A stretch of DNA of 64,000 bases from Marispirochaeta sp. (GTDB taxonomy: Bacteria; Spirochaetota; Spirochaetia; JC444; Marispirochaetaceae): contig CAXXFF010000004.1 in NCBI GenBank assembly GCA_963676835.2, forward strand, positions 416,001-480,000. Reading direction: 5' to 3'. Under the pieces are notes generated by a model that made no database searches, was not told the origin of the DNA, and was given only the letters and a program-made list of their open reading frames with translations. Each line of letters opens with the position of its first letter. Position 1 is the first letter of the stretch. This document shows, piece by piece, positions 9,950 to 19,171 of this stretch. The position numbers and the translations under genes are program-made.

Positions 9950-10663
9950 ATGACAGGCCCTTTTCTCAACAGTGCAGCAATAATTACAGGCGGGATTCTC
10001 GGTGTTGTTCTAAAGAATGTTGTGCCCAAACGAATAGAGGAAGGGCTGCCATCGACCTTTTCCCTGGTTGCCATGTCTCTCGGAGTAACCATGATTATCC
10101 GGGTAAGCAATGTACCCGCAGTGGTTATCGCCCTGCTTATCGGAACTGTCATAGGGGAACTTCTCAAACTGGAAACAGGGGTACAGACCGCCGCAGGAAA
10201 ACTGCAGAAAAGCGTTGCCCGCATAATTCCCCACACCCACTCGCTGGACGATGAAACCTTCGCCAGGAACTTTACTTCCATGACCATACTCTTCAGCGTA
10301 AGCGCCCTGGGAATTATCGGAGGCCTGACAGAGGGATTGAGCGGGGACTATCAGCTGCTGATTATAAAGTCTCTGCTGGATTTTCCCACAGCTCTGATAT
10401 TTGCCATGAGCCTGGGAGCGGCTGTTGCATTTATTGCTGTTCCCCAGCTGATCATTCAGGGGGCTATGTTTTTTCTGGCTGAGGCAATAATGCCCTGGAT
10501 GGATGAGGCAGCCTACGGCGACTTTTCCGCACTGGGAGGCATCATAATGCTCGCCATAGGACTGCGTATTGCAGGAATAAAGAACTACTCGGTTACCAAC
10601 TTTCTGCCCGGCCTGCTGCTGGTAATTCCCGTATCATACCTCTGGAGGCACTATTTCGGCTGA
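9950..10663 (+). CDS. DUF554 (YdfK/YqgA-like) membrane protein
   Basis: GPFLNSAAIITGG and KSLLDF motifs. Start moved to ATG 9950, which follows an AGGAG SD. Confidence 0.88.
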   Translation: MTGPFLNSAAIITGGILGVVLKNVVPKRIEEGLPSTFSLVAMSLGVTMIIRVSNVPAVVIALLIGTVIGELLKLETGVQTAAGKLQKSVARIIPHTHSLDDETFARNFTSMTILFSVSALGIIGGLTEGLSGDYQLLIIKSLLDFPTALIFAMSLGAAVAFIAVPQLIIQGAMFFLAEAIMPWMDEAAYGDFSALGGIIMLAIGLRIAGIKNYSVTNFLPGLLLVIPVSYLWRHYFG

Positions 10664-12151
10664 AGAATCACCGGTCGCTTCCCCCACGTCAGCGGCGGTA
10701 TTCAGCCCGGCAATACTCTCTTCCCTGTTTTTCTGCTTTAACCAGAGAATCTGTTTCTGGGTTCCCACCAGGTGAAGCTGGCCACCGTTTTCCTTCAGCA
10801 CCATATACAGGTTAAGCAGGTAGCGGATACTTTCGGGATCGATTGATTCAACCTTACTCATTCGAATGGTAATCTCTTTCTGTCCGGAATAGAGGAGCTG
10901 GCGGATCATAGGGGAGAGATACTCAACATTTCCCAGGGATAACGATCCGGAGAGGATAAAAACCCCCGGGGACTCTCCGTCAATCTCAATGGACAGAGGA
11001 TTCTTCAGGGCTTTTTTGTCTTCAACCTTCTGACTTTGGGAGGTGACATGAGAAAGCATCTCGTTGGTATTCCGCAGCCGCTTTACCAGCCCCTCCAGAA
11101 TATTCATAAACCAGTCGGGCACGGTATATACATTGGCAAAAAACTCACGGGGGGTAATTTCCAGAACAGTACTGGTTTTTGCAGCCTTCACTGTGGCAGA
11201 GCGCTTGCCTTCCCGCAGTAGAGACATTTCGCCTACAACATCACCGGAACGGGATTTTCCAAGAAAAACCGGGTTCTGCCCTTTTACCTCCTCGAGAATC
11301 TCAAACTCACCGGACTTGATAACAAACATGGATCGTTCATAATCACCCTGGCGAATCAGAATCTCTCCCTGTTCAACCCGACGGAGGGGCAGGTTTGAGC
11401 TTTCAATTAGGCTGCGAATCTCTTTTATTCCGGCAACCTTATTGCGGATAAGCTGCATATTCCGCAGCTTTATTTTACCTTCCTGTGCAGGCCTGCTTTT
11501 AGCCAGCTGAAGCAGATAGCCCAGACTCTCCATATCGGCATCAATTACGCCGGAAAAATCGATAACAATACCTTCGGGGCACTTCAACAACGCCTTTCGC
11601 ACCCGGACTTTGACCGAATCTATCTGAGTCTGGTCAAAAACACCCTTCAGATGCAGTTCGCCATTACACTCCTGCTGTTCAAGGGGTGCAGAATTTTCAG
11701 AGCTTTCATCCCGAGAGCTCTCTTCAGCTGCTATTGGATGAGGACCGGAGGCCATGTAGTCTCCAAGCAGTTCTGTTGTACGTTTTATCCGTTCAACCAG
11801 AACCCGGGCAATACTCAGGGCCCAGCCGGAAATACTCAGAGCGTCATCTTTGAGAATATCTTCACTGATTCTATTGGCAATTACAGGTTCAAGGGCGGTG
11901 ACTGTTGCGGTACGGGGAATCCCTGCAATAAAGGACATTTCCCCCACATGACAGCCTTTTCCAAGCTCGGTAATGGGTACGGTGGCTCCTTCCTTGGAGA
12001 TTGCTACCCGTACCCGCCCCTTGCGGATAATATACATTTCCCGGCTTTCGGATCCTTCCTTAAAAAGGAGATCCCCCGCATCGAAACGCAAAAGCTTTGT
12101 CTGTGGATAAAGATCATCGGCCCGTTCGGGCGATTCTTCTGTCTTGCCCAT
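10634..12151 (-). CDS. Tandem cNMP-binding/STAS protein (cNMP-STAS-cNMP-STAS)
   Basis: Two CNB motifs (GEMSFI..PRTATV; GEMSLL..KRSATV), each followed by a STAS-like segment (IVIDFSGVIDAD; ITIRMSKVESID). Confidence 0.8.
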   Translation of the reverse strand: MGKTEESPERADDLYPQTKLLRFDAGDLLFKEGSESREMYIIRKGRVRVAISKEGATVPITELGKGCHVGEMSFIAGIPRTATVTALEPVIANRISEDILKDDALSISGWALSIARVLVERIKRTTELLGDYMASGPHPIAAEESSRDESSENSAPLEQQECNGELHLKGVFDQTQIDSVKVRVRKALLKCPEGIVIDFSGVIDADMESLGYLLQLAKSRPAQEGKIKLRNMQLIRNKVAGIKEIRSLIESSNLPLRRVEQGEILIRQGDYERSMFVIKSGEFEILEEVKGQNPVFLGKSRSGDVVGEMSLLREGKRSATVKAAKTSTVLEITPREFFANVYTVPDWFMNILEGLVKRLRNTNEMLSHVTSQSQKVEDKKALKNPLSIEIDGESPGVFILSGSLSLGNVEYLSPMIRQLLYSGQKEITIRMSKVESIDPESIRYLLNLYMVLKENGGQLHLVGTQKQILWLKQKNREESIAGLNTAADVGEATGDSSAEIVPPEV

Positions 12152-12210: not shown

Positions 12211-12477
12211 CTAACTGGCCGCCTCAGCAGGATCAAGGGTAATGGTACAGCGGTTTCCCCGGAATGAGAGTATACCGCTGGCGGCAGACACAGAGTGTTC
12301 CTGACCAACCCCGTCCCGGTAGCGGACCAGGGAGTTCTCCTTGAGAACCGCCAGAACCGGCTCGTGCCGGGCTTCGAATCCCATGGACCCGTCGGGGGTT
12401 ATTATCCCGCAGAATCCAGCCTCTCCGTCATAAAAAACGTGGGTCACCGAAGTGATGGTCAGATCAAAGGTCTTCAT
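12211..12477 (-). CDS. atpC: F0F1 ATP synthase epsilon subunit, N-terminal beta-domain only
   Basis: Last gene of the atp operon; GSMGFEARHEP motif; 88 aa. Confidence 0.85.
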   Translation of the reverse strand: MKTFDLTITSVTHVFYDGEAGFCGIITPDGSMGFEARHEPVLAVLKENSLVRYRDGVGQEHSVSAASGILSFRGNRCTITLDPAEAAS

Positions 12478-12479
12478 AC

Positions 12480-14767
<2,288 letters not shown>

Positions 14768-14780
14768 GCCTTATCCGTTC

Positions 14781-16970
14781 CTATTTCTCCGAAAGCTCTT
14801 TTATTCTGGGAATAAGATCCTTCAGCTCTTCCGGAGTCTCAGCTTTGAGCCAGGAATCTTCAAAGGAGGGATGGTTTACTATCAGTGCCAGGGTGGAGAT
14901 TACCACCAGGTGAAAGTGGCGCTGATCCATGGATCCCGCCAGGAAGAACATGGCATGAACCTCGGGAGCCGTATCGGTAAATTTAATTCCCCGTTTTGAG
15001 CGGACAATAAGCAGCTGAAACTTGCGCTTGCCCTCGATAACAATATGGGGCAGAGCAAAGAATGGGCTCAGGGCAGTCGAACTGGAAGCCTCCCGGGCAA
15101 GGAGTTTGTCGTAAATCTCCTTGGCGTTGATATCCGCGTGTTCCTTTGCCATTTTTTTGGACGCAACCTTGAAGAGGGTTTCCATCTTTGAGGATTTTTC
15201 ATAATCAATAACTTCACAGTTGGCCACGAGCTCTTCGAAGCGGTCCTTCTCAAGCACATCGTCCCCGGCAATAATCTGCTCCAGCTCCTTCTCCAGAGAA
15301 GGAGATGCAAGCTCCCGGGAAGTGACCCGTTCAACCAGCTTGAGCATATCCCGGTTTATCCGTGAAGAACGCTGACTCATGGCCATGGCAAGCTTTACTG
15401 TGTAGCCCGAGTCTATGCCGCCGCTCACTGAATCCGGCCGGAAATGCTTTTCAAACTCGTCAAAGAGAGCATCAATCTCCTTACCAAGAGCATCATCAAT
15501 GGCTCCGGTCTCCCGAAGCTTTGCCAGAACCGGGGCACCTTCATTATCAAGATAGTCAAAAAGCTCCGACTGGTAGCTTAAAAGCTTACCCGTAGGATAC
15601 TTGTCCAGACGGCCTGATGTACCGGCCTTAAGAATAAAAACCTGTTTAAAAACATCCACCGGCTGATACTGGGGCTGCTTGAGAATCTCCGTAAGCCGTT
15701 CTCCCCGGTCGAGCTGCTTCTTGGTGGCGCTGTCCAGGTCTGATGAAAACTGCATAAAGGCTGCAAGCTCCCGGAACTGGGCAAGGTCAATACGAAGAGA
15801 ACTTGCGGTCTGCTTCATTGCCTTTATCTGGGCATCACCGCCGACACGGGAAACAGATATTCCCACATTAATAGCCGGACGCAGACCGGAGTTGAACAGG
15901 TCAGCCTCAAGGAATATCTGACCGTCGGTTATGGAGATTATATTTGTGGGAATATAGGCGGAAACGTCACCTTCCTGAGTCTCGACAATAGGCAGGGAGG
16001 TGAGGGATCCTCCTCCCTGCTCATCACTCATCTTGGCGGCACGCTCAAGGAGCCTGGAATGGAGGTAGAAAACATCTCCCGGATAGGCTTCCCGTCCCGG
16101 AGAACGGCGCATCAGCAGGGAGAGCTCCCGGTAGGCCTGGGAGTGCTTGGTCAGGTCATCATAGATAACCAGGGCATGCTGTCCGTTATCCCGAAAGTAC
16201 TCCGCCATGGCCGTAGCGGCGTAGGGAGCAAGATACTGAAGTGCAGCAGGGTCGGAAGCGGTGGCGGCAACCACAGTGGTATACTCCATAACACCATGAC
16301 GCTTAAGGGTTTCGATAAGCTGAACCACCGAGGAGCGCTTCTGTCCGATGGCTACATAGAAACAGTAAACCGGTTCATTACGGCTGTCCTGCTTCTGATT
16401 AATTATCGTATCCACGGCAATGGTGGTTTTTCCGGTACGGCGGTCGCCGATGATCAGCTCCCGCTGTCCACGGCCGATGGGAATCATGGCATCAATAGCC
16501 TTGATTCCTGTCTGCAGGGGTGTGGCCACATTCTGCCGGTCGATAATGCCGGGGCCCTTCCGCTCCACCCGGTAATAGGCTTCCGCTTCAATGGGTCCCT
16601 GCCCGTCGATGGGATTTCCCAGGGGATCAACAACCCGTCCGAGAAGAGCTTTACCCGCAGGAACCTCCGCAACACGGCTGGTCCGGCGGACAGTACAGCC
16701 TTCCCGGACCTTCTCGTATTCCGAAAAGAGGACAATACCCACAGTATCCTCTTCGAGATTCATGACCATGCCGCTGACTGGATCACCGGCATCGACATCA
16801 ACCTCTACAAGTTCCCCGGACATAATATTGTCCAGACCCCAGACCTGAGCTATACCGTCACCAGCCTGAACAACCCGGCCGACTTCAACTTCCCCGGAAG
16901 ACGGCTTGAAATCGGAGATTCTGTTTTTAAGCAGTTCAAGAATCTCCCCCGGTTTTATCTCTTCTCTCAT
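14781..16970 (-). CDS. atpA: F0F1 ATP synthase alpha subunit fused to a C-terminal PTS EIIA-like domain
   Basis: GDRRTGKT and [20 protein letters not shown] in aa 1 to about 510. A further ~219 aa follow in frame, containing LARE..SSTAL..FALPH. Confidence 0.97.
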
Positions 16971-17512
16971 ACCCTATCCTGTTTTAACCACCGCCGCATT
17001 TCCTGCAGTCTGTGGGCAGTGGACATATCTATCAGTTTTGAATTCATGAGGATTCTTACCCCTCCGAGGATTTCCGGTCTGTGGCGGTATTCAACCCGGA
17101 CACTTCTGCCGGCAAGAGTCTCGAAAAGTGGATCCAGCCGTTCTGCAAGGTCATTCCCCGGATCAAAGGCTGTATCAACCAGCACAGGAGTAATACCCTC
17201 CTCCCGGTCTGCTACCTGCTGGAAAGCATCAGGCAGAAGCGGCAGAATCGCAATCCGGCCGTTTCTTACAGCAGCCTCAAGCAGCCTCTCTGCAAGTTCA
17301 CTCACGTAGGGCGCAAAGGCTATGCGGCAGAATTCAATCCCCTCATTGCGTCCGTTATCTCCCCGGAGACAGTACTCCCGAACTCCCTCCACCTGGGAGA
17401 AAATCCCGGCCAGTGCAGAGATATCTGCTGCTGCTTCCTTGAGACTGGAGCTTTCCCGTGCAGTTTCATACAAAGCACGGGCATATCTGACAGCCAGACC
17501 GCTTTCTGTCAT
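16967..17512 (-). CDS. atpH: F0F1 ATP synthase delta subunit
   Basis: [10 protein letters not shown] and [13 protein letters not shown] motifs; operon position. Confidence 0.92.
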
Positions 17513-17991
17513 AAGCTTTTAATAAGCTCCTCTACCCGGTTCCTGTCCGCATCTGCACTGTAGGTCTGATCCACCAGTTTTTCAGATACAGATAGTACCA
17601 GGTCGGCAATTTCCGACCTCAGAGACTCTATAGCGGCCGCCCGCTCTGTGGAAATAGATGCTGCAGCCTGAGAGTGGAGTTCACTGATCTCCGCTTCCGC
17701 TTTCTCAAGCATCCGGGTTTTTATCCCTTCCGCGTCCTTGCGGGTCTGACGGAGAATCTCATCCGCTTCATCCCGGGCACGCTGGATAACCTTTCCGTGC
17801 TCTGCTTCAATCTCTGCAAGACGCTGCTCAATCTGTTCGGCCTTGTTTACGGACTCCCGGATTTTTCTTTCCCGGCTGTTTATGGCACCGAAAAGACCGG
17901 GAAACACAAACTTCCATAAAAGAACAAACAGCAGTCCGAATGTTATCCAGGTCCATAAAAAAAGGCCCGGATCCAGTTTAAACAAGTCCAC
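17509..17991 (-). CDS. atpF: F0F1 ATP synthase b subunit
   Basis: N-terminal TM helix then coiled coil; GTG start with SD. Confidence 0.95.
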   Translation of the reverse strand: MDLFKLDPGLFLWTWITFGLLFVLLWKFVFPGLFGAINSRERKIRESVNKAEQIEQRLAEIEAEHGKVIQRARDEADEILRQTRKDAEGIKTRMLEKAEAEISELHSQAAASISTERAAAIESLRSEIADLVLSVSEKLVDQTYSADADRNRVEELIKSL

Positions 17992-18066: not shown

Positions 18067-18297
18067 TCAGTTAGAGAAGATAACCAGAAGGGCGATGATG
18101 GCACTGAAGAAAGCGAGGCCTTCAATAAGGGCTGCCATCAGAATCATGTTACTGCGGATATCCTTCTTCTCTTCCGGCTGCCGGGCGATGGCTTCCATAG
18201 CCTTTGCACCAATCATACCAATACCTATCGCTCCTCCAATGGCGCCGAGTGCGGCGCCGATAACAGCAAGCGCTTTGGCAAGTGCAACAAAATCCAT
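18067..18297 (-). CDS. atpE: F0F1 ATP synthase c subunit
   Basis: Gly-rich first helix, ARQPE loop, ALIEG carboxylate. Confidence 0.97.
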   Translation of the reverse strand: MDFVALAKALAVIGAALGAIGGAIGIGMIGAKAMEAIARQPEEKKDIRSNMILMAALIEGLAFFSAIIALLVIFSN

Positions 18298-18328: not shown

Positions 18329-19171
18329 TCACCCGTGGGCACTGCTGGCCTGGGTAATAAAAATACAGCTGAGTAAGGTAAACACCAGGGCCTGGATAAG
18401 TGCAACCAGCACCTCCAGGGCATAGGTAAAAAGTGCAAAAGGTATTGAAACTGCGGTCATTATTGGACTGAGAACAAAAATAAGTACAATAAAGGAGAGT
18501 ATTGCCAGATGTCCGGCGAACATGTTGGCAAAAATCCGCAGGCTTAAAACCATTATCTTGATAAAAAATCCCAGCATCTCCAGAATGGCAACAAAAACCG
18601 CAACAGGAAAGGCTGTGTCTTCGGGAAAGAAATTCTTGAAAAAGTGAACCACCCCGATCCGCAGGAAGCCTATAAGCACCATGAGGACAAAGACCATTAT
18701 CGCCAGGGCGCTGGTAACGTTAATATTGCCGGTGGCAGATTTAAATGCCGGAATCAGTCCGATCAGGTTCATTACCAGAATAAAGAGAAACATGGTGGTA
18801 AAGAAGGGCATCCAGCGCTCCCCCCGCTCCTCTCCCATCACGGGGTAGACAATATCATCCCGGACAAACAAGACAATCATCTCCAGTCCCACAGCGGCAA
18901 ATCCGGGCTTAAGCCGGGGTTTACGGAAAATAACGGCAAAGGTCAGAAATATAAGCAGGCCGGACAGTATCAGCATAAGCCGGTGAACGGTAAGAAATGC
19001 AGGAAGCTCTATATGAGGAAGAAAGGGGAAGATTTCCAGAACCTGTCCGTCCTGAATATGAGAAAAGAGGGCATCTGCGGGACTTTCATTTGCAGCCTCA
19101 CCGGATTCTGCAAAGAGAGGAACCAGGAAAAAGAGAAGCACTATGAGTGGCAGCAGTTTTCTATTTCTCAT
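18329..19171 (-). CDS. atpB: F0F1 ATP synthase a subunit
   Basis: NLIGLIP, ATGNINVT, LRIFANMFAGH and LIQALVFTLL motifs. Confidence 0.97.
   Translation of the reverse strand: MRNRKLLPLIVLLFFLVPLFAESGEAANESPADALFSHIQDGQVLEIFPFLPHIELPAFLTVHRLMLILSGLLIFLTFAVIFRKPRLKPGFAAVGLEMIVLFVRDDIVYPVMGEERGERWMPFFTTMFLFILVMNLIGLIPAFKSATGNINVTSALAIMVFVLMVLIGFLRIGVVHFFKNFFPEDTAFPVAVFVAILEMLGFFIKIMVLSLRIFANMFAGHLAILSFIVLIFVLSPIMTAVSIPFALFTYALEVLVALIQALVFTLLSCIFITQASSAHG

Follow-up and report, generated by a model that had tools for sequence, protein, structure and literature searches.

In the F-type ATP synthase of a Marispirochaeta sp., the alpha subunit continues in frame into an EIIA domain of the phosphotransferase system (PTS). 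The gene lies in a window of 64,000 nucleotides, which is the whole stretch of DNA analysed (GenBank assembly GCA_963676835.2, contig CAXXFF010000004.1, forward-strand positions 416,001 to 480,000). The fusion is confirmed as genuine and is no assembly artefact. Its parts are known: regulation by EIIA-Ntr through binding, transporter-fused IIA and the regulatory alpha extension of mycobacteria. For the union of such parts on a rotary ATPase no description was found in the open literature; subscription journals and supplements lay outside this search. Public databases already display this architecture through precomputed Pfam domains, so that a listing of it may exist unnoticed.

The alpha-EIIA fusion

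14781..16970, minus strand: atpA, F1 alpha with junction and PTS EIIA (Ntr/Fru/Mtl fold), 729 aa (ORF, Pfam, NCBIfam)
15441..16970, minus strand: standard F1 alpha core, aa 1-510 (TIGR00962; Foldseek matches to F1 alpha chains)

A sequence-only reading of this DNA had described AtpA as alpha fused in frame to EIIA. The motifs quoted there were found, and the reading frame contains no internal stops. Pfam assigned ATP-synt_ab_N to aa 29-97, ATP-synt_ab to aa 155-374 and ATP-synt_ab_C to aa 381-506. These are followed by PTS_EIIA_2 (PF00359) at aa 588-720 (E 1.8e-20, 73.8 bits vs a cut-off of 27), the match which had been predicted for the tail. The NCBIfam atpA equivalog TIGR00962 spans aa 5-510 with 772 bits (cut-off 484). 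An identity as alternate or N-type alpha was rejected, as the score for TIGR03324 was 586 and lies below the cut-off of 750.

The same reading had suggested a survey of the alpha plus EIIA architecture. With aa 505-729 as query 110 clusters were matched, comprising 107 with alpha and EIIA, two permease-EIIA proteins and one alpha with the junction only. Since 107 of 110 homologue clusters possess both domain types, the fusion is not due to chance or misassembly. Its full-length members measure 721-745 aa. The closest named record over the tail is a Marispirochaeta MAG with 96% identity. Core and tail of the gene have GC3 values of 0.56 and 0.59. A stop or misassembly at the junction, considered beforehand as an objection to the fusion, was not seen. 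An 88-kb contig of run X1 covers the whole gene with no differences, but it is possibly the source DNA and so not independent. For four pairs dN/dS was 0.011-0.126 in the junction, 0.020-0.217 in EIIA and 0.026-0.063 in the core.

That the tail is a neutral passenger or an artefact of assembly is extremely improbable. Its repeated losses show that it is dispensable in some lineages, as a passenger would be. However, more than 100 independent clusters carry the fusion at a constant length (721-745 aa), and dN/dS in the tail is 0.01-0.22. The artefact reading as such is ruled out by the shared architecture and the low dN/dS, to which the spanning contig, possibly the source, is added.

The EIIA domain and its active site

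14784..15215, minus strand: EIIA domain, aa 586-729 (PF00359, 1A6J profile match, Foldseek)
15045..15047, minus strand: His642, predicted phospho-acceptor (aligns with the AIPH His of EIIA-Ntr)
15093..15095, minus strand: Arg626 of the RE..ST motif (108/108)
14910..14912, minus strand: His687 (aligns with the THL His of EIIA-Ntr)

The assignment of the tail to EIIA, made in the sequence-only reading, is backed by Pfam, by a profile match to 1A6J (E. coli EIIA-Ntr; E 6.4e-9) and by the fold search. The AF2 model of the tail has a mean pLDDT of 77, is confident from about aa 575 and reaches 80-95 across EIIA. Foldseek matched this model to 2A0J with E 1e-6, TMt 0.85 and rmsd 2.4.

An alignment of 108 fusions shows that the active-site residues are conserved. 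R626 and E627 are each present in 108/108, H642 in 106/108, so that the His was rightly described as intact, and H687 in 106/107. We take R626 to be the active-site Arg, H642 the phospho-His and H687 the second active-site His. The domain resembles EIIA-Ntr/PtsN (1A6J, 2A0J, 3URR, 4GQX) in its fold (TMt 0.80-0.85), in the RE..ST and A.PH motifs and in the second His. In contrast to PtsN, which is a free soluble protein, it is fused in cis and only about 22% identical. Being not stand-alone, it falls outside the PtsN equivalog TIGR01419; a permease tail of the same subfamily reaches 27 bits with this family (cut-off 138.7). Unlike PtsN, the AtpA domain is a member of a distinct subfamily of transporter tails, which have R657, R684 and W707.

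Junction, linker and origin of the tail

15378..15440, minus strand: alpha-specific junction, aa 511-531 (P-D...I-D-S-G-Y-T-V-x-L-A-M-A), candidate effector (conservation)
15216..15377, minus strand: three-helix linker, aa 532-585, probably captured (homologous to the part that follows the final TM helix in APC permease-EIIA proteins)

Between core and EIIA two stretches can be distinguished. The junction is highly conserved in the aligned fusions (D520 107/108, G522 108/108, A530 106/108), and an HMM of transporter tails gave no match to aa 511-531. A helix at aa 523-531 is predicted with low confidence. Confidence in the junction is low in both the full-length and the tail model, with pLDDT <50 at aa 515-538 in the former. 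The linker is predicted to form helices at aa 537-550, 559-567 and 572-584; E562 is kept in 108/108 and R577 in 103/108 aligned fusions.

The HMM, built from 37 transporter C-termini, matches AtpA at aa 532-720 with E 2e-63. Position 532 corresponds to the point just past the last TM helix of the permease. A FastTree tree calculated for the module places 116 ATP-synthase tails and three unassigned fragments in one clade (support 0.81) nested among transporter tails. Because of this match from aa 532 onwards and the nested clade, residues ~532-729, linker and EIIA together, were likely captured from the tail of a membrane transporter. Module capture from a permease-EIIA-type tail had already been presumed from the letters of the sequence, and it agrees with these results. 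As likely donors, APC-EIIA and CPA2/Kef-like Na+/H+ exchanger-TrkA_N-EIIA proteins show the same helical linker and EIIA. In these proteins the tail is attached to a secondary transporter, behind one of its TM helices, whereas that of AtpA sits on a rotary motor.

When all representatives at 50% identity were searched with a profile, 137 matches at E <= 1e-30 were obtained. Pfam was run on 65 of the best 150 matches, namely the long ones plus some fragments. The hosts scanned in this way were mostly APC permeases, then CPA2 Na+/H+ exchanger-TrkA_N proteins or fragments of them, one P-type ATPase and alpha fusions. The EIIA tail appears to be a regulator module that moves between membrane transporters (CPA2, P-type cation ATPase, APC). 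CPA2-TrkA and P-type cation ATPase fusions of the same tail subfamily include P0251, P0284, P0293, P0295 and others. In the own genome no strong second match to the subfamily was obtained, and no functional study of it was found in the open literature.

Alternatively, the tail could be a docking scaffold. It would recruit HPr/NPr, metabolic enzymes, a transporter or a second ATP synthase (via the helical linker) and leave rotation ungated, as in SLC4/band 3. The tail model did match SLC4 cytoplasmic domains in Foldseek, more weakly than 2A0J (E 4e-5 to 5e-3). These domains are scaffolds and are not known to be phospho-acceptors, whereas the active-site Arg and both His of the tail are nearly invariant. 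We consider this alternative unlikely, even though the linker was apparently captured along with EIIA and has been conserved. The mode of action of PtsN would also suit a scaffold: according to a review, PtsN acts by binding to proteins, with no known phospho-acceptor target (PMC13104625).

The subfamily is set apart from the canonical EIIAs of the genome by its residues and in the tree. R657 (116/116) and R684 (115/115) are invariant in the ATP-synthase tails and nearly so in transporter tails. Among six aligned canonical EIIAs of the own genome R657 occurs in one and R684 in none. Hence the tail might be a ligand sensor that works without phosphorylation, with the basic R657 and R684 (with H685/H687) binding an anion or a phospho-metabolite which tunes F1. 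This is distinctly unlikely, as H642 is conserved regardless and no ligand is known.

Distribution and losses

An F-type alpha was matched in 77 of 401 genomes of the class Spirochaetia, and 28 of them, from ten families, possess an alpha of the fusion clade. The reading frame has at least 726 codons in 23 of these and is shorter in five. Among the shorter ones, G196 is cut by the contig end and G354 at the 5' end, and there is one true loss of EIIA; the 636-codon frame of G153 was left out of the sequence inspection. In the last of the five (L064, G224:C15) a stop near aa 110 splits alpha into frames of 109 and 613 aa with an intact tail. Of five other Marispirochaeta genomes one carries the whole fusion and one a fragment cut by the contig end; no F-type alpha was found with this query in the remaining three. 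Outside the spirochaetes, record titles name Omnitrophota, Planctomycetales, Fibrobacter, Kiritimatiellota, KSB1 and Chitinispirillaceae; these are MAG labels, some of which may be misbinned.

An IQ-TREE tree of the alpha core was calculated with 54 hand-picked sequences out of 216. One clade (97/89) unites all 21 fusions with five tail-less derivatives and an alpha of 513 aa. Its sister consists of five alphas of 543-550 aa with a short IDxG-type extension, and both together are supported by 100/99. Four of the five nested alphas without EIIA end at 551-560 aa with the junction helices retained, the junction being degenerate but still present. One pair of EIIA-less alphas is sister to a fusion without its His. 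The tree fits a short extension first, one capture and then several losses.

Some loci deviate in their arrangement. One contig (L066, G167:C150) carries two divergent F-type operons; the alpha of one is fused to EIIA, and that of the other is an ordinary alpha of 517 aa. In a Kiritimatiellota-titled genome (G056) the fusion of 737 aa (L054:1246-3459) has neither delta nor gamma as a neighbour. It is convergent to ORFs which resemble an ammonium transporter and GlnK, named by inspection of the sequence. A separate contig of this genome (L069) carries beta, epsilon and gamma, the last of these in two pieces.

The PTS relay

The phospho-donors assumed in the sequence-only reading, EI and HPr, are both encoded in the genome. 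It contains PtsI, a longer PtsP-like EI, two HPrs and an HprK adjoining one of the HPrs. The T-S-H motif is retained in both EIs, and both score above the cut-off of TIGR01417. Nine further EIIA domains were detected, and a search for EIIC with PF02378 only gave no match. Among 23 distinct fusion genomes, G021 and G043 being counted as one, HPr is present in 23/23, EI-N in 22/23 and a PF02378 EIIC above the cut-off in 4/23. Since so few have this EIIC, the PTS of these bacteria seems to be mainly regulatory. The review cited above describes PTS-Ntr as present in Spirochaetales and carbohydrate PTS as nearly absent there (PMC13104625). Partners such as TrkA, YcgO and KdpD are bound by PtsN according to its phospho-state (PMC13104625). 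In the main text of this review, which covers PtsN, ATP synthase or ATPase is not mentioned.

Loss of the tail following loss of the PTS was considered, but this was not seen: EI and HPr remain in G183, which lost EIIA, and in G107, which lost the His. Therefore, the co-occurrence of fusion and relay is permissive only.

Signalling in the reverse direction, from the ATPase to the PTS, is very unlikely. The tail would then report the state of the ATPase, its phospho-state following the conformation of F1, or act as a stoichiometric phosphoryl sink which shifts the phosphorylation of HPr/NPr. Three copies per abundant complex, as expected from the alpha3 stoichiometry, and a PTS mostly without sugar EIIC would be favourable. 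However, with nine other EIIA domains in the genome one extra sink is a weak lever, and the losses drop EIIA but keep the junction.

Operon, F1Fo partners and other ion pumps

18329..19171, minus strand: atpB, subunit a (PF00119)
18067..18297, minus strand: atpE, subunit c (PF00137)
17509..17991, minus strand: atpF, subunit b (PF00430)
16967..17512, minus strand: atpH, delta (PF00213)
13901..14767, minus strand: atpG, gamma, 288 aa (PF00231)
12480..13898, minus strand: atpD, beta (PF00006/PF02874)
12211..12477, minus strand: atpC, epsilon, 88 aa, beta-sandwich only (PF02823 at aa 4-82 only)

The fusion is part of a complete operon in the order atpB-E-F-H-A-G-D-C. Related loci show the same order as far as their contigs reach, except L054. 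Promoter and terminator scans gave scores at the level of shuffled sequence. After atpC a cNMP-STAS-cNMP-STAS protein of 505 aa is encoded (10634-12151, minus strand); of 21 related loci, the Marispirochaeta one is alone in having it beside the operon.

In subunit c neither the Na+-site Gln nor the E-S/T pair is present, and the same applies to 16/16 aligned c subunits of related loci. We take these residues to be the Na+ motif of c/K subunits. Thus, the F-type enzyme is likely coupled to protons.

Epsilon has 83-88 aa and no C-terminal inhibitory helices in 16/16 related loci that show it. A replacement of the epsilon brake by the tail was considered and is weakened, as epsilon is generally short in the class of G056 as well, with epsilon frames below 120 codons in 21/23; named Kiritimatiellia/Pontiella alphas measure 502-505 aa. 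The short epsilon seems to be a trait of a wider lineage and not specific for the tail. In the alignment of gamma no large or fusion-specific insertion was seen as a docking site.

The idea that this enzyme is the sole rotary ATPase of the cell was rejected, since a V/A-type ATPase is also encoded (L058, G000:C1:326095-333352; E, unknown, A, B, D, I, K by NCBIfam). Its I subunit was missed by PF01496 and caught by NCBIfam; PF01496 exceeds the cut-off in 14 other genomes of the 23, and this family under-calls. The K subunit has residues which we presume to be of the Na+ type. Furthermore, the genome contains two RnfD/NqrB genes, and no match for cytochrome bd was obtained. Given this combination, the main role of the F-type enzyme is likely that of a proton pump which consumes ATP.

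Proposed regulation of F1Fo

Brakes of F1Fo described so far are epsilon, zeta, IF1, a gamma disulfide and the mycobacterial alpha lock; in the excerpts of the two sources, no phosphorelay drive is described for any of them (PMC9317440, PMC8698299). Mycobacterial alpha533-545 docks into gamma and blocks hydrolysis, as given in an excerpt of the second source (PMC8698299; PDB 7JG5/7NJK). The analogy to this lock, drawn earlier from the sequence, holds for the position: the extension lies past the last alpha helix at an equal distance from the core (colinear numbering). It does not hold for the sequence, as no homology to mycobacterial alpha518-548 was found and the match stops at about residue 517. 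Moreover, the mycobacterial extension comprises ~35 aa without a signalling domain, in contrast to ~220 aa with a folded EIIA in AtpA.

LacS is a further parallel. Its C-terminal IIA-Glc-like domain is phosphorylated by HPr and tunes a non-PTS membrane machine, i.e. a PTS IIA domain is likewise fused in cis to such a machine. It differs in the EIIA fold, which is of the Glc family, and in the host protein.

We propose that an EI-HPr/NPr relay would phosphorylate His642 on the EIIA of each alpha subunit. The phospho-state of this residue would switch the activity of the enzyme with carbon and nitrogen status. His642 is probably phosphorylated in vivo. The chances that this phosphorylation would alter ATP hydrolysis or synthesis seem evenly balanced. 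For the combined proposal, phosphorylation by HPr/NPr and thereby gating of F1Fo, arguments of similar weight might be put forward on either side. The EIIA-Ntr fold and the membrane transporters as other hosts of the subfamily are in favour of gating, and the repeated loss or degradation of the tail stands against it. Transporter tails retain the His to the same degree (83/87 and 26/26); its conservation could therefore be an inherited constraint of the domain and not the result of selection for gating of F1. As its epsilon lacks inhibitory helices, the enzyme would benefit from an off-switch that responds to PEP/pyruvate or glutamine/2-oxoglutarate.

The junction was chosen as candidate effector because it is alpha-specific, conserved, usually kept after loss of EIIA and located at the distance of the mycobacterial lock. 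EIIA would then hold or release the junction (here aa 511-550). This choice is tentative, and another effector would be less surprising. In its widest form the proposal describes a rotary motor gated by a PEP-driven relay, in which phospho-His642 on three EIIAs would hold or release a junction helix that latches gamma. Such a covalent, signal-controlled brake would have originated in two steps, the IDxG extension and then the capture of EIIA. Through the mobile module, a single PTS control would extend over F1Fo as well as APC permeases, Kef-like antiporters and a P-type ATPase. Taken as a whole, this picture is possible but rather doubtful.

If gating is true, a PTS phospho-acceptor on alpha would wire carbon and nitrogen signalling straight to the energy converter. 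With the fusion, the regulatory-only PTS of spirochaetes gains a target that is amenable to experiment, and attention is drawn to the transporter-tail EIIA subfamily. H642 allows a test with a single residue, and relatives without His or EIIA serve as natural controls. One such relative (L067, G107) has the fusion with the phospho-His replaced, and another (L065, G183) an alpha of 560 aa with junction and without EIIA; both keep EI and HPr. In the latter, a single case, gamma shows a deletion of ~14 aa.
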